44,965 nucleotides of DNA from a virus (taxonomy: Duplodnaviria > Caudoviricetes). The position numbers were made by a program, and so were the translations under genes. This document shows, one piece after another, positions 17,358 through 26,460 of the stretch. The notes under the pieces were generated by a model, which saw only the letters and a program-made list of their open reading frames with translations, had not been told where the DNA came from and did not search any database. The stretch is from positions 1 to 44,965 of IMG/VR virus record IMGVR_UViG_3300032136_000008; one strand, written 5' to 3'. Position 1 is the stretch's first letter. Each line of letters begins with the position of its first letter.

Positions 17358-17858
17358 ATGAACATCTTCCGCGTAGCATATACTCCAATAAGATGCGCCC
17401 AATGCCTCGACGATCTTAGGTTAAATAAAATGATCCTCGAAACGGCGCAGTTACTTTCCACCGCCGTTTGGCACCATGCGCCTCAGCAAGCCCGCCTATG
17501 GGGCCTCTATCGCCCGACGCATCGGAATCATCCAGTCACCCTTTGGGTCAAACATTCGGAAAGCAATTATCGCTGGACCACGGACCTCTTATACCACCTC
17601 CTCCGCGAGCGCGAGTTCCGGACAAACAAAACCCATGCGACGCAAATATACCTCCGCCGCCTAACCGACGGAGTAGAGTTTATCCCCTGGGCAAAACCAA
17701 TTCCAAGCCCTAATTGCTCCGCCTATCCGGAAGTCGAGCATTTCCTCGCCTATCGCCTTACCTTGCGCGACAAGTGGGTTAATGATATTCGAACTCCGAC
17801 CTGGACCAAGCGCGGTTCGCCTGAATGGCTTAAAAAAATCAGCGATTTAGATTGCTAA
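17358..17858 (+). CDS. Pyrimidine-dimer DNA glycosylase/endonuclease V-like protein (Pyr_excise family)
   Basis: MNIF...DD.RLNKMILETAQLLST...YRPTHRNHPVTLWV..S..NY.W signature. Confidence 0.8.
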   Translation: MNIFRVAYTPIRCAQCLDDLRLNKMILETAQLLSTAVWHHAPQQARLWGLYRPTHRNHPVTLWVKHSESNYRWTTDLLYHLLREREFRTNKTHATQIYLRRLTDGVEFIPWAKPIPSPNCSAYPEVEHFLAYRLTLRDKWVNDIRTPTWTKRGSPEWLKKISDLDC

Positions 17859-18353: not shown

Positions 18354-18684
18354 ATCCACTATGATCCGAGGGCGCCGAGGTCGGCCGAGAAATCTCGAGC
18401 CCATGTCCCGGTGGACATTGCGAATCCCTGAGTCCATTGCCGCTCAATGGGATGCCTTATTCCTCGACCCAACGGGGACCAAGGTCAAGCATAACACTCG
18501 CAACGATATAGTCAAGGCTCTGCTTTCTCTAACCATGGAGAGCTTTATCCAAGGCGAGCCGATAGTCAATATCTCCCACGTCCACCAGCTTATCCGCGAC
18601 AAAGCTCAACAGGCCGGATTAGCTGTGGAGGAAATCGACGCCGAGGACATTCTTCTCCCAGAGGATTTTGAAGAAAAGTCTTGA
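18340..18684 (+). CDS. Putative DNA-binding protein (AT-hook-like RGRPR plus ribbon-helix-helix-like region)
   Basis: RRGRPR followed by WTLRIPESIAAQWD...RNDIVKALL; GGAG RBS at ATG 18340. Confidence 0.6.
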   Translation: MAVIKSTMIRGRRGRPRNLEPMSRWTLRIPESIAAQWDALFLDPTGTKVKHNTRNDIVKALLSLTMESFIQGEPIVNISHVHQLIRDKAQQAGLAVEEIDAEDILLPEDFEEKS

Positions 18685-18709
18685 CAACTGGCCACTATTA
18701 TGGCATACT
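18681..18709 (+). promoter_or_regulatory. Sigma70 promoter for the recombination/replication module (CTTGACAACTGG family)
   Basis: TTGACA-17 nt-CATACT with extended TG. Confidence 0.8.
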
Positions 18710-19301: not shown

Positions 19302-20282
19302 ATGATTGACTCTCACCCTCGCTTCCCGGAGGTCATAGATTCCTCCATCCGGGGCGCCTTTGTTTCTTGCCCGAGGCAATTCTACTACGGCTATCTTCGA
19401 GGCTTGTCCTCCAAGCGCCTTTCGATTCACCTCCATTTCGGCGCCTGTTTCGCCGCAGGGTTAGAATCCTATCGCCGAGCCTTTTATGACGAGGAACGAT
19501 TGGCGCACGAGCTTTCCTCCTGGCATGACCATGCGCTTTATCTCGGCCTCATCCGCATTATCCGCGAATGGGGGGAGTATCCCACCGAGGAGGAAGAACC
19601 CAAAACTTTGTGGAATTGCCTCGGAGCCCTGGATTATTATTTCGAAACCCATCCTCCGGCCACGGATATCCTCCAACCATATATCAAACAAAACGGGGAA
19701 CCGGCGGTAGAGTTTTCCTTCACCTTGCCGATGGAAGTCCTCCATCCTGAAACCGCGGAGCCATTGATCTACGCTGGCCGGTTCGATATGCTCGGCCTAT
19801 ACCAGGGCCAGCTTGCCGTTATTGACGAGAAGACCACAAAACAACTCGGGGCCAGTTGGAGTTCTTCCTGGGATCTCCGCGCACAATTCAAGGGCTACGC
19901 CTATGCCGCGCATCAATTTGGCTATCCTGTAATCGGCACCGTAGTTCGCGGAATTGCTCTCCGCAAACTCGGCTTCGACCACGCCGAGGCTTATATTCCC
20001 GTCGCCAAGTGGGATCTTGAACGCTGGTGGGAGCAACTCCAACACGATGCAAATCGCATGGTTACCTCGTGGAAAAACCGCTACTGGGATATGAATCTAG
20101 ATTCTTCCTGCACTTCCTACGGCGGTTGCGCCTTTACCCCGCTGTGCAAACTTTCCAACCCCGAGCCCTGGATCGAATCCAGCTATGTCGTGCGCCGGTG
20201 GAATCCATTAGACCGCGACCCCTTATCCGAGGATCGCAAACGCGAGGCAAATTCAATCACCGAATTCGGAGCCCTGCTATGA
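19302..20282 (+). CDS. Cas4/RecB-like PD-(D/E)xK exonuclease
   Basis: N-terminal CPRQF, catalytic GRFD...VIDEKT, Q..GY and C-terminal C.....C.....C (Fe-S ligand pattern). Confidence 0.85.
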   Translation: MIDSHPRFPEVIDSSIRGAFVSCPRQFYYGYLRGLSSKRLSIHLHFGACFAAGLESYRRAFYDEERLAHELSSWHDHALYLGLIRIIREWGEYPTEEEEPKTLWNCLGALDYYFETHPPATDILQPYIKQNGEPAVEFSFTLPMEVLHPETAEPLIYAGRFDMLGLYQGQLAVIDEKTTKQLGASWSSSWDLRAQFKGYAYAAHQFGYPVIGTVVRGIALRKLGFDHAEAYIPVAKWDLERWWEQLQHDANRMVTSWKNRYWDMNLDSSCTSYGGCAFTPLCKLSNPEPWIESSYVVRRWNPLDRDPLSEDRKREANSITEFGALL

Positions 20283-20704
20283 AGGCCGGGTTTCTCTTAA
20301 CCTTCCCCGACGGGAATACCAAGGACCTTGGCGAATTCCATTTAAAATCCATCCAGGGCCTCCCACACCTCCCGCACTTTTTCTGCCCCCGATGCGGAGA
20401 AGAATGGGGAACCGCCTATGCCTTGGATTCCCAGGAACACCGCCACGTTGTTCATCACGCTCTTTGCCTTAACCATGGAGGAGGAAGCCTAATCCTATGG
20501 GGAGATTATCCCCTCGACCAGTTTAATTATCAAATGCTTTTACACGAAATAACCCTTATCCTCGCCTACGGAGACCATTATGACTTCTGCAACTACAGCA
20601 CCAGCCGTCGAAACCAAGAAACCTGTGCAACATCCTGGCAGCAATACCTTGCTTCTAGGAGCAACCGGCACGGGGAAAACTTACTCCATCAGAACCTTTC
20701 TTGA
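20279..20704 (+). CDS. Zinc-ribbon hypothetical protein
   Basis: ATGA-coupled start; FFCPRCGEEW...CLNH. Its 3' end overlaps the ATPase gene by 125 nt. Confidence 0.6.
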   Translation: MKAGFLLTFPDGNTKDLGEFHLKSIQGLPHLPHFFCPRCGEEWGTAYALDSQEHRHVVHHALCLNHGGGSLILWGDYPLDQFNYQMLLHEITLILAYGDHYDFCNYSTSRRNQETCATSWQQYLASRSNRHGENLLHQNLS

Positions 20705-21413
20705 CGCCGGGATTACTCCCTTCGTCCTCGCCACGGAGCCGGGGATTGAATCGACTCTCGGCGACCTTCCTCCGGAAAAATGCCACTGGCATTACATTGC
20801 CCCGGCGGCGTCGAGCTGGGAGGACATGATCGACTCGGCCAAGAAGATCAACATGCTGGATCAAAAAGCCCTGGCCCAGATGCCAGGAATTAATAAGCGA
20901 AAATTTACTCAATTCATCGACGTCTTAACCACTTGCAATGATTTCGTCTGCGACCGAACCGGAGAATCTTTCGGCGACGTTTCAACCTGGGGGCCAGATC
21001 GAGTCCTGGTTATCGACTCCCTCAGCGGCCTGAATATCATGGCCATGAACCTCGTCGTCGGCTCGAAACCGATGAAATCCATGCCTGACTGGGGCATGGC
21101 AATGGATAATCTCGAGCGCCTTATCATCACTCTAACCACAGGAACAAAATGCTATTTCGTTCTAACCGCTCATCTTGAACGAGAAGTGGATGAGGTAACC
21201 GGCGGAACGACCATAACCGCCTCCACCCTTGGCCGCAAACTAGCCCCTCGAATCCCTCGCTTCTTCGACGACGTGATCATGGCGCAACGAGAAGGCAAGA
21301 CCTTTACCTGGACCACGACGGCCATGAATGCTGATCTCAAGGCCCGAAACCTTCCTTGGGATTCCAAACTCAAACCCACGTTTAGGCAAATCGTGGAGAG
21401 CCGGAATGTTTGA
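20580..21413 (+). CDS. AAA_24/Sak4-like ATPase (recombination/annealing module)
   Basis: Walker A GATGTGKT, Walker B LVIDSLS and LTAH motif. Sits between exonuclease and SSB. Confidence 0.85.
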   Translation: MTSATTAPAVETKKPVQHPGSNTLLLGATGTGKTYSIRTFLDAGITPFVLATEPGIESTLGDLPPEKCHWHYIAPAASSWEDMIDSAKKINMLDQKALAQMPGINKRKFTQFIDVLTTCNDFVCDRTGESFGDVSTWGPDRVLVIDSLSGLNIMAMNLVVGSKPMKSMPDWGMAMDNLERLIITLTTGTKCYFVLTAHLEREVDEVTGGTTITASTLGRKLAPRIPRFFDDVIMAQREGKTFTWTTTAMNADLKARNLPWDSKLKPTFRQIVESRNV

Positions 21414-21486
21414 GCGCCTTCTCGTCATCATCGGAGTAATTGTTTTTATCCTTGTTTTCTCCTGGATAATATTTAAAAAACTCTAA
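21406..21486 (+). CDS. 26-aa single-pass membrane peptide (not in the ORF track)
   Basis: MFERLLVIIGVIVFILVFSWIIFKKL. GGAGAG RBS at 21395-21400; start overlaps the ATPase stop. Confidence 0.6.
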   Translation: MFERLLVIIGVIVFILVFSWIIFKKL

Positions 21487-21617
21487 GTCGAAACGGGGCG
21501 GGGTGTGGCTCTCCCCAGCTGTTTGCTTCCCAGGATTGGTCTCCTCCTCCGCAAACAGAAACCACATTCCGCCTCGTCTGCCAGGGCTGGGTTCCCTGGT
21601 ATTGATAAGACAACCTG
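21487..21617 (+). ncRNA. Type II hammerhead ribozyme (U3-A8 core variant)
   Basis: GTC-GAAA-stem III (21493-21508/21562-21577)-GTC cleavage triplet (21576-21578)-stem I TGCCAGGG/CCCTGGTA-core TTGATAA-GAC. Loop I TGGGTT can pair with the 3' tail AACCTG. Confidence 0.85.
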
Positions 21618-21637
21618 AAACATAGAGGAAAAATCAC

Positions 21638-22063
21638 ATGTTTGATCCTACAACTTTCGCTGACACCACGATCGAAGATTCGTTTGAGGAAAAGCGTTCG
21701 CTCATCCCGCCGGGGGAGTATATGATGACCCTGGAGGAAGTCGAACCCCGCGTAGTTGGTGAGCGGAATCTTCCAATTCTCTCCGTCCGGCTGCGGATCG
21801 TCAACTCCGGGGACGAGGAGGCCGACAACCGCGTAATCTATCACACCGTTTGGCTGGACATGGACGACGCCGGGTCGCTTCTCACTGGCCCGAATAAGAA
21901 CATTAACCTCGGGCAGTTGCTTTCCGCCCTGGGGCTTAATGGCAAGCCCTGGTCGCCGAACCAGTTGGCCGGGAATGTTGTCCTCGGGAATCTTTCCCAT
22001 ACCTTGAACAAGCGCAGTGGAGAAATGGAAGAGCGGATCACCCGCTTCGCCAAGGCGTCGTAA
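21638..22063 (+). CDS. Single-stranded DNA-binding protein (DUF669/gp2.5-like OB fold, putative)
   Basis: IPPGEY motif, OB-like beta pattern, position after the Sak4-like ATPase, GAGG RBS. Confidence 0.7.
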   Translation: MFDPTTFADTTIEDSFEEKRSLIPPGEYMMTLEEVEPRVVGERNLPILSVRLRIVNSGDEEADNRVIYHTVWLDMDDAGSLLTGPNKNINLGQLLSALGLNGKPWSPNQLAGNVVLGNLSHTLNKRSGEMEERITRFAKAS

Positions 22064-22070
22064 GGCGGTA

Positions 22071-22113
22071 GGCCCAGGGAGGTGCCAAGGACGGTGCTTT
22101 CTCTGGGTTTTTT
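22071..22113 (+). terminator. Intrinsic terminator after ssb
   Basis: GGCCCAGGGAG...TTCTCTGGGTT stem followed by a T run. Confidence 0.75.
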
Positions 22114-22128
22114 AAAAGGAGAGTAACA

Positions 22129-22530
22129 ATGCCTAAATGTATCCATTGCCACAGCTCAGGACTTGGAGAATTTTGCTTTGATGATTGCGAAGCATGTGAT
22201 GGAACAGGAGAACAAGAGATGTCTGATAAAACAATCTGGGATAGCCCTAAAGCACCTGACTTCAGACCTGTAAATGCCATAATTGCAGAACTTATCAATA
22301 CAAAAAAAGAAGCTGATAAATATTACCAGCTTTGGCAAGCGGAGCGCCGGCAGTTGCAAGGTAAATTAGATGCCTCACGACTTGTAGTTACCGAACTCCG
22401 CGCCGAAAACGCACAGCTGTTAAACCTTATCAAAGAACACAATACATATGTTCAATGTGGAGGAGGATCAGACAATCCTGATGATCTTATAATCTTTCTC
22501 CCCGGAGCCTCTTCTAATGCCCATGATTAA
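22129..22530 (+). CDS. Hypothetical protein with a DnaJ-type CxxCxxxG zinc finger and a coiled coil
   Basis: CIHCHSSG...CEACDGTG; AAGGAG RBS. Confidence 0.65.
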   Translation: MPKCIHCHSSGLGEFCFDDCEACDGTGEQEMSDKTIWDSPKAPDFRPVNAIIAELINTKKEADKYYQLWQAERRQLQGKLDASRLVVTELRAENAQLLNLIKEHNTYVQCGGGSDNPDDLIIFLPGASSNAHD

Positions 22531-23827
22531 ACCATATTTCCTCCCCCTTTCCGAAGTATCTCTATCCGACAGGCAAAGAAAATACTTCGACGAATCCAAG
22601 ATCATCGACCTGGCCGAGGATATTAAACTCCATGGCCTGATCCATGCTCCTGCCGTTACCTCCCTCGGTCGCCTTATTGTCGGCGAGCGGCGCCTTCGCG
22701 CCATGCAGATGCTGCATCGGAAAGAAACGCCTTTTACTTACCAAGGCGCCGTCTGCCCGCCGGAGCACATTCCAGTAACCTTCATCCCCGTCGAAAAAAA
22801 CCTCTCCGACGAAGAGATTGAAATCCAACTCAAGGAAATCGAACTCGCCGAAAATCTTCTCCGCGAAAACCTTTCCTGGCAAGAGCGAGCCCAAGCCGAG
22901 CGCGAACTCCATATCCTCCGAAAAGAACAAACCGGGGGGAAGCAAACCTTAGAGCAAACGGCCGAAGAAATCAAAGGTTCTAAACCAACAAACTTAGACA
23001 AAGGAAATCTAAAGGAAAACCTTTTCCTCGCCGAGCATCTCACCGATCCCGAGATTTCCAAAGTCAAGAATCGCAAAGACGCTCTCCGCATTGCCAAGGA
23101 AAAAGTCCTCCGCGAACGCCGAGCGGCTTTGGCCGAGGAATATAAAATAAATCCTAAAAAATCCGAAAGTCCGCATATGCTTATCCTCGGGGATTGTTTA
23201 GAACAATGGAATAAAATCCCTGAATTTTCACTTCTCCTCACCGATCCTCCCTATGGCATGGACGCGGGAGAATTCAACTCTCAATTCACCATAGCTCATG
23301 AGTATGAAGATTCCTCCACCTCTTGGCCAGAGCTTATGGAATCCTTGGCAATTAATTCTTATAAACATTCCAAAGACCTTGCCCATGCATTTGTCTTTTG
23401 TCATATTCTTAATTTCCCCGAGCTTGCCGCTAAGTTTTCCTCTGCCGGCTGGGACGTTTGGCCGAGGCCATTAATCTGGGACAAGGGTTCCCTGGGTTCT
23501 CTCCCAAAACCTCATCATGGTCCGCGGTTCTGCTACGAGGCAATCCTTTTCGCTAACAAGGGAAATAAACCCGTCCTCCGCACGGGCCGAGATGTTTTGC
23601 CTATAACCAACCCGAGCAAAACTTTCCACGCCGCCGAGAAGCCGGTGGAGCTTTTCTCTGAACTTATTTCCCGAACCTTGGAACCTGGAGAAATCGTCCT
23701 TGATCCATTTTGCGGAAGTGGGACTATCTTCCCCGCAGCGACGAGGCAAGCCGTCAAAGCCGTTGGGATTGAGAAATCCTCCACCCATCACGACACGGCT
23801 TTGATTCGCCTTCGCGAGGGATTATAA
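22517..23827 (+). CDS. ParB-like N-terminal domain fused to a beta-class N6A/N4C DNA methyltransferase
   Basis: GLIHAPAV...LIVGERRLRA...ELAENLLRENL (ParB). TDPPY precedes H.AEKP and VLDPFCGSGT (MTase). Confidence 0.9.
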   Translation: MPMIKPYFLPLSEVSLSDRQRKYFDESKIIDLAEDIKLHGLIHAPAVTSLGRLIVGERRLRAMQMLHRKETPFTYQGAVCPPEHIPVTFIPVEKNLSDEEIEIQLKEIELAENLLRENLSWQERAQAERELHILRKEQTGGKQTLEQTAEEIKGSKPTNLDKGNLKENLFLAEHLTDPEISKVKNRKDALRIAKEKVLRERRAALAEEYKINPKKSESPHMLILGDCLEQWNKIPEFSLLLTDPPYGMDAGEFNSQFTIAHEYEDSSTSWPELMESLAINSYKHSKDLAHAFVFCHILNFPELAAKFSSAGWDVWPRPLIWDKGSLGSLPKPHHGPRFCYEAILFANKGNKPVLRTGRDVLPITNPSKTFHAAEKPVELFSELISRTLEPGEIVLDPFCGSGTIFPAATRQAVKAVGIEKSSTHHDTALIRLREGL

Positions 23828-23829
23828 CC

Positions 23830-25533
23830 ATGGATCTCGAAAAGCTTCCCCGTTGCTATCCTTCCGGCCCGGTTCCAGCTAAGATCCTCATCGTCGGAGA
23901 ATTCCCCACGGCTGAGGAAATCCACCGCAAGGAACCCTTCGTCGGCGCGTCGGGCAGAGTCCTCACCGACATTCTTCATGAATTAGATATCCTCCGCACC
24001 GAGTGCCGGTTGACCAATGTATCCCCCTGGCGCCCTCCGCGAAATGATATCTCTAAATTCTTTCTAACCAAAACCGAGGCAACAAAGAATGGCTTTCTTC
24101 CTCTTGGAGGAAAATACCCAAACCAAGCCCTTCGCCAGGGGCTTAAAGAACTCGCCATCGAGGTGGCAAAAACCCAGCCGGAAATAATCATTGCTCTTGG
24201 CAACACGGCATTATGGGCGCTGACCTCCGAGTGGGGGATAACTAAATGGCGAGGAAGTGCGCTTACCCTTAACCCGGCTTGGGAGCAACCTTATGATCCT
24301 GATATCCGAGTCATAGCTACTTATAATCCCCTAGGCATCATGCGCTCTTGGGATTGGCGGCCGGTTGCTTGTTATGATATTTCCAAAGCAAAGGAACCAA
24401 AACCTAAGGAACCTGAATGGGACTGGAAGATATCTACCTCCTTCCGCTCCGTTATGATTCAACTTTATCTTCTCAAACGATCCTTGGATCAAGATAAACT
24501 CTCTTGGATCGCCGCGGATATTGAAACCCGAGAACGAACCTTTGTCGACTGTATCGGCCTGGCATGGTCCGAAACCGAGGCCATTTGTATCCCCTTTTTC
24601 CGCGCCTCAGATTATTCCTTCCTCTGGACCGAGGAGCAAGAGGCTGAGATTGTTCTTTTTCTCAGGGAAATCTTTCTTCATCCTCGAACAAAGCTCATTG
24701 GGCAAAACTGGTATTATGATGCTCAATATATCGCTCGCATCTGGGGCATCTTTCCAATCCCTGAATTCGACACCATGGTCGCTCACGCCGTCGCCTATCC
24801 AGGTACACCAAAAAGCCTAGATTATCTTTCATCCATTTATCTCCCATGGCATCGCTATTGGAAGGACGACACTGCCGAAGCCGAGGCCGAGGCCGATGAC
24901 AATAAGCGCTGGGAATATAACTGCAAAGATTGCTGCGCCACGTGGGCTCTACGCGAGCCGATTGAACAAACCCTTAGATCTCAGAATCTTTGGCAACCTT
25001 GGGAATTCGAGCGAGATCTCTTCCGCCCATTGATGGCAATGATTATGAAAGGCGTTCGATTGCATGAAAAGCGGAGGCAAGAATACCTTCCCTTGGTCCT
25101 CGACCAGCAAGCCGATTTGGAAACCTTTTTCCAACAAGTCCAAGCCGAGGCCTTCCCGGATCTTGAACTCGCCAAGACTAAAACTGCAAAACCCTGGTAT
25201 CGTTCCCCAACCCAGATGGTGAAACTTCTCTACCAACACCTCCACCTCCCGACCCAATATCATAAAAAAACCAAGCGCCCGACGACCGACGAAGCGGCCC
25301 TCGCCGCCTTGATGAAAAAGGAGCCAATCTTTGCTCCCTTATTTTCCCTTATTCTTGACTACCGATCCCTCGGAGTCTTTCTAACAACCTTCCTCCTCAT
25401 GCCCATGGACCGGGATAGAAGATGGCGGACCTCCTACAACCCCGTAGGAACGGAAACCTTCCGCCTGAACTCTAAATCCGATTCATTCGGAATGGGAGGT
25501 AATCTACAAAACATTCCAACTGGAGACGACTGA
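23830..25533 (+). CDS. polA: Family A DNA polymerase, N-terminal part: UDG-like domain, 3'-5' exonuclease and thumb
   Basis: ILIVGE.P and PFVGASG (family-4 UDG). DIET / NWYYD / YNCKD (Exo I-III). GTETFRL and NLQNIP at the C-terminus. Confidence 0.9.
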   Translation: MDLEKLPRCYPSGPVPAKILIVGEFPTAEEIHRKEPFVGASGRVLTDILHELDILRTECRLTNVSPWRPPRNDISKFFLTKTEATKNGFLPLGGKYPNQALRQGLKELAIEVAKTQPEIIIALGNTALWALTSEWGITKWRGSALTLNPAWEQPYDPDIRVIATYNPLGIMRSWDWRPVACYDISKAKEPKPKEPEWDWKISTSFRSVMIQLYLLKRSLDQDKLSWIAADIETRERTFVDCIGLAWSETEAICIPFFRASDYSFLWTEEQEAEIVLFLREIFLHPRTKLIGQNWYYDAQYIARIWGIFPIPEFDTMVAHAVAYPGTPKSLDYLSSIYLPWHRYWKDDTAEAEAEADDNKRWEYNCKDCCATWALREPIEQTLRSQNLWQPWEFERDLFRPLMAMIMKGVRLHEKRRQEYLPLVLDQQADLETFFQQVQAEAFPDLELAKTKTAKPWYRSPTQMVKLLYQHLHLPTQYHKKTKRPTTDEAALAALMKKEPIFAPLFSLILDYRSLGVFLTTFLLMPMDRDRRWRTSYNPVGTETFRLNSKSDSFGMGGNLQNIPTGDD

Positions 25534-25721
25534 TGACCTGCGAAGAGCAACAAGAACTTCTTAGTGGATATCTGACCATGATCGAATCCAATACCCAGCG
25601 GCTTTATAAAACCGGCCAAGCCACTCCCGAGCGCATGGCCCTGCATCATGATACCATCAGCCTCTTCAACCGTTGCCGGGAGATCTTGAACCGTGACTGC
25701 CAGACTTCCGAATATTCGTAA
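25533..25721 (+). CDS. 62-aa hypothetical protein inserted between the polA halves
   Basis: TGATG coupling to the upstream stop and GGAG RBS. Overlaps the start of the second half. Confidence 0.6.
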   Translation: MTCEEQQELLSGYLTMIESNTQRLYKTGQATPERMALHHDTISLFNRCREILNRDCQTSEYS

Positions 25722-26460
25722 ATTATTTATCCCTGATCCAGGATATATTATCTGCGATACTGACCTTGATCGCGCCGATTTGCAAGTTGTAGTATGGGAG
25801 GCCAATGACGATGATCTTAAATCCAAACTCCGTGAAGGAGCTGACATTCACCTGGAAAACGCAAAGGACATTTTTGGAGAGCGAGCTGCAAAAGAAAAAC
25901 GACCACTCGCCAAGGCTGGAGTCCATGCAACTAACTACTACGCTTCTCCAAGAACTCTTGCGCGAGCACTGGGAATCACTATTAAAGAAGCCGAGTATTT
26001 TCAATCCCGATGGTTCGCAGCTCACCCAGGTATATCAGATTGGCACGACAGTGTCGAGGCGAGTCTACGCGCGAGCCGAAGTGTCCGGAATCCCTTTGGA
26101 TTCAGACGTTATTATTTCGATCGAATCGACGCTGTGTTACCAGAAGCCTTAGCCTGGATTCCACAATCCACAGTTGCGATTGTAACTAATCAAGGGATTA
26201 AAAACCTATACCACAACGTACCGGCCGTGGATATTTTACTCCAAGTCCACGACTCCGTTGTTTGGCAGATAAAAAAGGCCTTGTTTAATTTCAGGTTGAA
26301 GGAAATCTACCAGGCTCTTCACATAACAATTCCATATCCTGATCCCCTGACCATCCCGGTCGGGCTTAAGGTTAGTGAATCTTCTTGGGGAGAGTGTAAG
26401 GAAATGGATTGGAAGGCTGTGGTGGAGGGAGGGGAAGGTTTAAGGGCGACGAATATTTAA
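25693..26460 (+). CDS. polA: Family A DNA polymerase, C-terminal palm/fingers part
   Basis: IRKLFIPD, motif A DLDRADLQV, motif B RPLAKAGVHATNY, motif C LQVHDS. GTG start with GGGAG RBS. Confidence 0.9.
   Translation: MTARLPNIRKLFIPDPGYIICDTDLDRADLQVVVWEANDDDLKSKLREGADIHLENAKDIFGERAAKEKRPLAKAGVHATNYYASPRTLARALGITIKEAEYFQSRWFAAHPGISDWHDSVEASLRASRSVRNPFGFRRYYFDRIDAVLPEALAWIPQSTVAIVTNQGIKNLYHNVPAVDILLQVHDSVVWQIKKALFNFRLKEIYQALHITIPYPDPLTIPVGLKVSESSWGECKEMDWKAVVEGGEGLRATNI

Follow-up and report, generated by a model that had tools for sequence, protein, structure and literature searches.

Hammerhead ribozymes with the permuted type II topology, a pseudoknot and, in a natural variant that is active in vitro, a U3-A8 core pair were published in 2011 (Perreault et al., PMC3088659), and in the same work phage hammerheads were proposed to process mRNAs of operon or gene length, single-gene messages among them. 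The role of phage hammerheads is called open in reviews (PMC6765202, PMC6155905). In phage T4, the ssb mRNA is reported to be processed at -71 and to be the most stable T4 mRNA, and RNases E and G are described as preferring 5'-monophosphate ends (PMC3014915). In Bacillus subtilis, RNase J1 is reported to degrade the 5'-OH RNA that the glmS ribozyme produces (PMC11780869). DUF669 proteins encoded beside sak4 have been shown to be single-stranded-DNA-binding proteins (SSBs) in HK620 (PMC5928155) and Healer (PMC13687109). Judged by title and the start of the abstract, none of the papers found deals with a phage hammerhead upstream of ssb; ssb-linked or long-arm cases may be listed in Weinberg et al. 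2015 or in Dataset S1 of PMC3088659.

A complete type II hammerhead fold can be read from the sequence at 21487-21617 (+) of the window, by which we mean the whole 44,965-base virus record that was analyzed, between a small open reading frame (ORF) on the sak4 side and ssb. We think it reasonably probable that this element actively processes RNA in favor of ssb, the ribozyme cutting the exonuclease-sak4-ssb transcript after 21578.

Genomic setting of the element

The window is 99% complete by CheckV, and its sequence is present in sediment metagenome runs; the sequencing runs listed for it are three DNA runs, one of which may be the origin of the record itself, and no RNA run. Its genes include those for a family A DNA polymerase, a primase/helicase, and portal and capsid proteins of the SU10 type. 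The nearest upstream sigma70-like promoter on the strand, at 18681..18709 (+), is a candidate by consensus match (10/12 consensus matches, 17-nt spacer). Between it and the ribozyme lie a gene of the recombination module for a PD-(D/E)XK exonuclease (19302..20282, +; PF12705, E=1.5e-9; phrog_1218), the gene for a Sak4-like AAA_24 single-strand annealing protein (20580..21413, +; PF13479, E=2e-12; phrog_124, E=2.8e-19), and a 26-codon hydrophobic ORF (21406..21486, +), which has its own SD-like GGAG and no Pfam match and whose stop codon abuts the ribozyme. A related locus, L133, also has a 26-codon hydrophobic ORF in the same place.

Downstream of the ribozyme, an SD-like GAGG and the ssb start codon (21625..21640, +; ATG at 21638) lead into a gene (21638..22063, +) for a DUF669-type OB-fold SSB of 141 aa (phrog_378, E=1.3e-6) that, judged by its tail charge, lacks an acidic tail. 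PF05037 (DUF669) is matched by 6/6 close homologs (best E=7.5e-6), the window protein itself falling below the cut-off (15.9 versus 21 bits). The structural model of the window SSB (pLDDT 95.6) has the plasmid protein PrgE as its best structural match (E=1.2e-5) and SSB and PriB chains as weaker ones, all of which we take to be OB-fold single-stranded-DNA binders. The protein encoded beside Sak4 is a member of the DUF669/OB-fold group, and the identification of the downstream gene as ssb in an earlier note on this DNA is borne out by phrog_378, the DUF669 homologs, and the OB-fold model. The same note had envisaged a monocistronic ssb product bounded by a terminator, and an intrinsic-terminator-like hairpin with a U run (22070..22113, +; -23.5 kcal/mol) does follow ssb.

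Elsewhere in the window, a pyrimidine-dimer glycosylase-like gene (17358-17858) and a gene for a ParB-methyltransferase fusion (22517-23827) were found. Two ORFs (23830-25533 and 25693-26460) share the coding sequence of the family A DNA polymerase, which has a uracil-DNA-glycosylase-like domain at its N terminus, and between them lies a 62-codon ORF of no known family (25533-25721). Rfam gave no match in this region at the gathering score; a natural split, an insertion, and recoding are the candidate explanations.

Structure of the hammerhead

Stem II is open and both stem I and stem III closed, as in the type II topology. The 5' strand of stem II, GTC (21487..21489, +), was located by descriptor and fold and ends in C11.1 at 21489; its 3' strand, GAC (21609-11), runs directly into the pseudoknot tail (21612-17), the two occupying 21609..21617 (+). 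The GAAA at 21490..21493 (+) supplies G12, A13, A14, and A15.1. Stem III (21493..21577, +) is a helix of 16 bp, counting A15.1-U16.1 and including three G-U pairs, with a distal extension and pair probabilities of 0.84-1.0. Its arm measures 82 nt from C15.2 to G16.2, the GAAA and the triplet being excluded, versus 11-22 in the short class. The GUC triplet occupies 21576..21578 (+), and the cut is predicted from the hammerhead consensus position to follow C17 at 21578, which is 59 nt from the ssb ATG (21638). Stem I (21579..21601, +) has 8 bp, one of them G-U, formed by strands 21579-86 and 21594-601 around a 7-nt loop I. The core, UUGAUAA (21602..21608, +), corresponds to U3 U4 G5 A6 U7 A8 A9. 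Every coordinate that the earlier note gives is correct, as a rereading of the sequence confirmed.

The three helices are thus arranged around positions 3-9, G12 A13 A14 A15.1, U16.1, and H17, and the 3-8 pair alone departs from the hammerhead consensus. Positions 3 and 8 nonetheless form a Watson-Crick pair, U3-A8, and since both element-bearing relatives, L133 and L010, have C3-G8, the earlier interpretation of U3-A8 as a compensated core pair holds. Loop I (21588-93) is the predicted partner of the tail (21612-17), with four Watson-Crick pairs and two G-U wobbles (duplex, -4.2 kcal/mol). Such a loop I/3'-tail pseudoknot has at least the four pairs that mark type II hammerheads, as had been proposed from this sequence and as covariation of the pseudoknot across the class upholds; it is weaker than in similar phage hammerheads, which have six Watson-Crick pairs.

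When the element was folded in isolation with pseudoknots unscored, stems I and III were near certain and stem II had a probability of 0.6. In a 320-nt context, again with pseudoknots unscored, the probability of stem II was 0.08, because sequence of the upstream ORF pairs with the core. In addition, U3 permits a competing fold in which the core forms 5 bp with the 5' strand (probability, 0.2-0.25). Activity of the element at low Mg2+ is, from these folding models, likely but not certain.

That predicted pairing between core and upstream ORF, together with the small-ORF stop codon abutting stem II, would also suit a regulated switch, in which cleavage is governed by translation of the 26-codon ORF (the ribosome covering stem II at the stop or freeing the core) or by a protein such as SSB bound to the stem III arm. 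T4 gp32, which is reported to autoregulate via a leader pseudoknot (PMC3014915), offers a precedent, and a 12-nt apical motif of the stem III arm (21533..21544, +) is common to the window and L133 although the flanking helix has diverged. Outside the window this motif was found in 1/330 loci, namely, L133; as an argument for a switch it is weakened by being a matter of two sequences and by having no counterpart in L010. We regard such a switch as unlikely, for these reasons and others given below.

Statistical support and covariance model searches

A descriptor covering all three hammerhead permutations, run on both strands of the window, matched at this site and nowhere else. The site has 27 paired positions, a count that never exceeded 14 when the sequence was dinucleotide shuffled 60 times, and the folding z-score of the element is -3.1 to -3.2. 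Positions 21270-22233 are matched without a single letter difference by a contig from a second study, so the element is not an assembly error.

The search with the Rfam type II hammerhead covariance model that had been proposed at the outset was unsuccessful on the intact sequence: the Rfam search of the window returned no hammerhead match at the gathering score or at E<=10, and the element does not reach the RF02276 gathering cut-off of 37 bits. On RF02276, phage copies whose loop I and tail are the same reach 47-52 bits. Rfam also misses a consensus-core long-arm copy in L010, and the 82-nt stem III arm is therefore the probable cause of the miss in the window. The miss counts against membership by Rfam score, not against the element's working like a type II hammerhead. 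We also built a covariance model from 39 hammerheads found in other phages. Run with its filters off, it puts this site at the top of its matches in the window (25 bits, E=5e-5; runner-up, E=3) and aligns only the 3' half of the element correctly. With default filters the same model gave no match in 100 of 153 Sak4/SSB loci, L010 and L133 among them; this null is filter blindness toward the long arm, not absence of the element. When GenBank phages were searched with the element by blastn, a chance match was the only result.

The absence of an Rfam match is what might be said for a chance match or an assembly artefact. Shuffles, covariation, and the identical contig of the second study exclude it, and Rfam misses the L010 copy too, so this explanation is barely credible.

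Related hammerheads in L133 and L010

Single-protein queries against IMG/VR gave no loci; with Sak4 and SSB alignments as queries, at least 153 loci were obtained, from which 110 distinct ssb leaders were derived, that of the window included. Close relatives are under-represented in this set, for which 8 of 64 metagenome parts were covered. Among the loci listed, hammerheads were found in 3/110 of these leaders, those of the window, L133, and L010. Of the matches listed, the closest relative is L133 (Sak4 C terminus 79% and SSB 67% identical to the window). In the comparison of these two sequences, 22/22 predicted pairs are kept, six by double change (five in stem III and one in stem I), three by single change, and none is broken. 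Further swaps affect stem II and the 3-8 pair; the middle pair of stem II is U-A in the window and A-U in both L133 and L010. L010, which is more distant (Sak4 61% and SSB 31% identical to the window), has a hammerhead in the same place with a consensus core, GAAA, a GUU triplet, unrelated stems, a long stem III, and a 6-bp pseudoknot; its stem I is wholly different and has 7 bp, and its pseudoknot differs from that of the window by one double change. The stems thus covary between the window and L133, with L010 as a third case, and the type II hammerhead identity assigned in the earlier note is sustained by topology, core, pseudoknot, and covariation.

The L133 hammerhead (L133:282-395) carries A14C, giving GACA in place of GAAA, and an extra U after A9, its stems being intact. 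A14C departs from consensus and was found in 1/331 sources; from the sequence, it may reflect an assembly error, decay, or a variant that cleaves slowly. Four other phage hammerheads in the collected loci also have the extra U after A9, and an extra A after the A9 position is reported as natural in a viroid (PMC1636495).

The earlier note had held that its reading would fall if related phages lacked core conservation and stem covariation. The former is indeed lacking in part, 107/110 leaders being without the element and the L133 core having A14C, and the latter is present. L001, the nearest full-length Sak4 neighbor of the window, has no hammerhead. A quick Sak4 tree places the window in one group with L001, L010, L003, and L086 (SH-aLRT, 94), and in a quick SSB tree the window and L010 are not joined. 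By these two trees, the ribozyme may have had either one origin or two. No RF02276-level type II hammerhead was found elsewhere in 38 related records; the phage family of the window is accordingly without the usual arrays.

This rare and patchy distribution (3/110 leaders, with L001 lacking the element), the lack of any other Rfam-level copy in the 38 records, the A14C of L133, and the two wobbles in the window pseudoknot could all be expected of a neutral or decaying gene-junction cassette that was acquired from another phage and has no selected effect on ssb. Such a cassette would not readily account for the want of any broken stem pair between the window and L133 at 67% SSB identity, for the consensus core retained with new stems in L010 at the identities given above, or for the U3-A8 swap, which requires two matched changes, and we consider this explanation quite unlikely. 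Processing in favor of ssb remains the reading that we prefer.

Type II hammerheads in IMG/VR

A U3-A8 pattern scan of IMG/VR showed that 34/45 loci are full U3-A8 hammerheads, which rules out U3-A8 as a rarity. Among 55 distinct sequences, 27 are U3-A8 hammerheads, counts that include many near-copies and come from a pattern selected for that core and are thus not a frequency estimate. The median distance from cut to ATG in the class is 59 nt (54 of 55), the same as in the window. An upstream stop codon begins 5-8 nt before G12 in 56/82 (a count without shuffle control), compared with 6 nt in the window. In a set of 39 sequences, picked for having stems, both the stems and the pseudoknot covary. 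The window element is, in this arrangement of upstream stop codon, ribozyme, SD, and ATG, typical of the type II hammerheads at phage gene junctions. Before unrelated genes, too, the class normally has a flush stop codon, which may reflect tight packing, which weakens the case for control by translation of the small ORF.

Long stem III arms were flagged in 17/94 pattern loci, amounting to 18 unique sites. L270, L272, and L291 were discarded as wrong assignments and L257 and L264 as doubtful, and the arms at the 13 sites judged credible are 38-86 nt long. None of these (0/13) adjoins a homolog of the window SSB family, which rules out the long stem III as an ssb-specific feature. Long arms also precede unrelated genes, a further point against a switch worked through the stem III arm.

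Three other arrangements were observed among the collected loci. The phage contigs L158, L168, L173, L179, and L189 hold arrays of 3-5 type II hammerheads per <=2.4 kb, one at each gene junction. Within the first 230 bases of the matching strand, L199, L209, L216, and L225 have type II hammerheads in which A9 and G10.1 are separated by an extra U and the triplet region is of GUA type, and U3-A8 copies adjoin them. At L275:792-902 (-), a long-arm type II hammerhead is followed directly by tRNA-like sequence, with no SD and ATG.

The ssb leader in related phages

A sigma70-like promoter was found in 25/110 ssb leaders, 91-152 nt before the start (shuffle mean, 1.6; maximum, 5 in 200), compared with 7/97 before sak4. 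The promoter-bearing leaders are concentrated in few clades. Terminator-like sites follow 47/90 ssb genes versus 5/90 sak4 genes. From these sequence features, the view that ssb tends to be set apart across the phage family gains support. By the tests used, 82/110 ssb leaders have neither ribozyme nor promoter, and a separate 5' end for ssb is therefore not clearly required. No sigma70-like promoter was found in the three ribozyme leaders, a result expected by chance about half the time.

Two sister phages without ribozyme or promoter share a conserved GC-rich ssb leader (L003:3355-3495 and L086:3135-3285), a segment of which, by prediction, pairs with the region of the SD and start, with an upstream SD copy as a possible alternative partner. 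On the modeled folds of these two sequences, the leader is a possible translational switch. A differently folded leader predicted to mask the SD in sister phages is a further point in favor of regulated cleavage in the window. When the ssb slot was searched for another Rfam family, L086 yielded no credible match, and 12 other loci yielded none at E<=0.5.

The ssb leaders of 98 relatives are G-poor 13-48 nt before the ATG (G fraction, 0.145), and AACC occurs in 61/98 of these stretches, versus a shuffle mean of 26 (maximum, 36). As far as sequence goes, the stretch could be an unstructured SSB operator or a translation enhancer. The ribozyme pseudoknot tail starts with the same letters, AACC.

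A broader proposal may be put forward tentatively, with the odds as a whole somewhat against it: the ssb leader would be a swappable slot in this podophage family, with SSB output uncoupled from that of Sak4 by an internal sigma70 promoter, by a self-cleaving hammerhead with a long arm, or by a hairpin that masks the SD; the ribozyme would stand in for a promoter and increase SSB through RNA processing alone, a defined function under selection; and the element would belong to a long-stem-III subtype that goes unseen by Rfam-type searches.

Proposed processing of the ssb transcript

Processing in favor of ssb would begin with a host sigma70-type polymerase, which would start at 18681 and run to the terminator, yielding a precursor of about 3.4 kb. 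After the ribosome departs from the small upstream ORF, the ribozyme would fold and would cut without a trigger. Cleavage after 21578 would yield a single-gene ssb mRNA of about 535 nt, the 5' end of which would be a 5'-OH carried by the 8-bp stem I hairpin, and the upstream piece would keep the long stem III as a 3'-terminal hairpin and end in a cyclic phosphate. In an RNase E-reliant host the ssb piece would outlast the upstream piece, so that SSB, which is needed in bulk, would exceed Sak4 and the exonuclease. The ribozyme would in this way substitute for the internal promoter that roughly one in four related ssb leaders appears to have. The idea that cutting frees a masked SD is not supported, the predicted SD accessibility rising only from 0.40 to 0.44 on cutting; so small a change also tells against regulated cleavage.

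The argument from 5'-OH stability made in the earlier note fits RNase E/G hosts and not RNase J1 hosts, and the sign of the effect therefore depends on the host. The ribozyme might thus cut and yet lower or cap ssb expression, its 5'-OH product going to a 5'-3' exonuclease so that a host-toxic protein is limited. The fate of the glmS product noted above is a precedent for this, an RNase J host is possible for the window phage, phage SSBs including the DUF669 protein Gp63 are reported to be toxic to bacteria (PMC13687109), and T4's own kinase is described as converting 5'-OH ends into decay substrates (PMC3014915). Weighing the other way, the ssb product would begin with an 8-bp hairpin at base one, the promoter apparently added by about a quarter of the relatives points to more ssb, and no polynucleotide kinase family was found among the 73 ORFs that were Pfam scanned (of 196 ORFs of at least 60 aa). 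Lowered expression is, on this evidence, fairly unlikely, and we retain processing in favor of ssb as the preferred explanation.

Comparison with known systems

A single copy before a gene of known function, in a slot that in relatives holds a promoter, a folded leader, or nothing, offers a natural comparison set, and because these natural alternatives occupy the same slot, swap experiments could directly test the idea that the RNA is cut to be stabilized. Since long-arm type II hammerheads escape both Rfam and default-filter searches, counts of phage hammerheads are probably low.

The closest described systems are the RF02276 phage and prophage hammerheads (PMC3088659), which, as reported, share with the window element the permuted order, the core, the short stem II, the loop I/3'-tail pseudoknot, the intergenic place in a phage operon, a natural U3-A8, and a proposed role in making single-gene mRNAs. 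Unlike them, the window copy has an 82-nt stem III arm and no RF02276 match, and relatives of the window bear a promoter-like site in the same slot. Where phage hammerheads usually form arrays between small unknown genes, the window has one copy, before a gene of known function.

In T4 gene 32, as in the prediction for the window, the ssb message is released from a polycistronic RNA by a cut some 60-70 nt ahead of the start codon, and the leader contains a pseudoknot (PMC3014915). T4 is reported to use host RNase E, and its pseudoknot binds gp32 (PMC3014915), whereas the window RNA would cut itself and leave a 5'-OH. Self-cleavage in a 5' leader that yields a 5'-OH mRNA, predicted here, is described for the glmS ribozyme (PMC11780869), which in contrast requires a metabolite and leads to RNase J1 decay; no ligand site is evident in the window.

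In gene content, the window resembles HK620 (PMC5928155) and the Gp63-Gp64 pair of Healer (PMC13687109), in which an AAA-family annealing protein adjoins a DUF669-type SSB, and differs from both in that its SSB is short (141 aa) and falls below the Pfam cut-off. The likeness to the anti-CRISPR repair module of Healer is one of gene content only, and the word ribozyme is absent from the main text of the Healer paper (PMC13687109). No part of the window element is new singly; set beside these systems, it is a genuine further case of a known phage hammerhead type, probably hidden from Rfam by its long arm.
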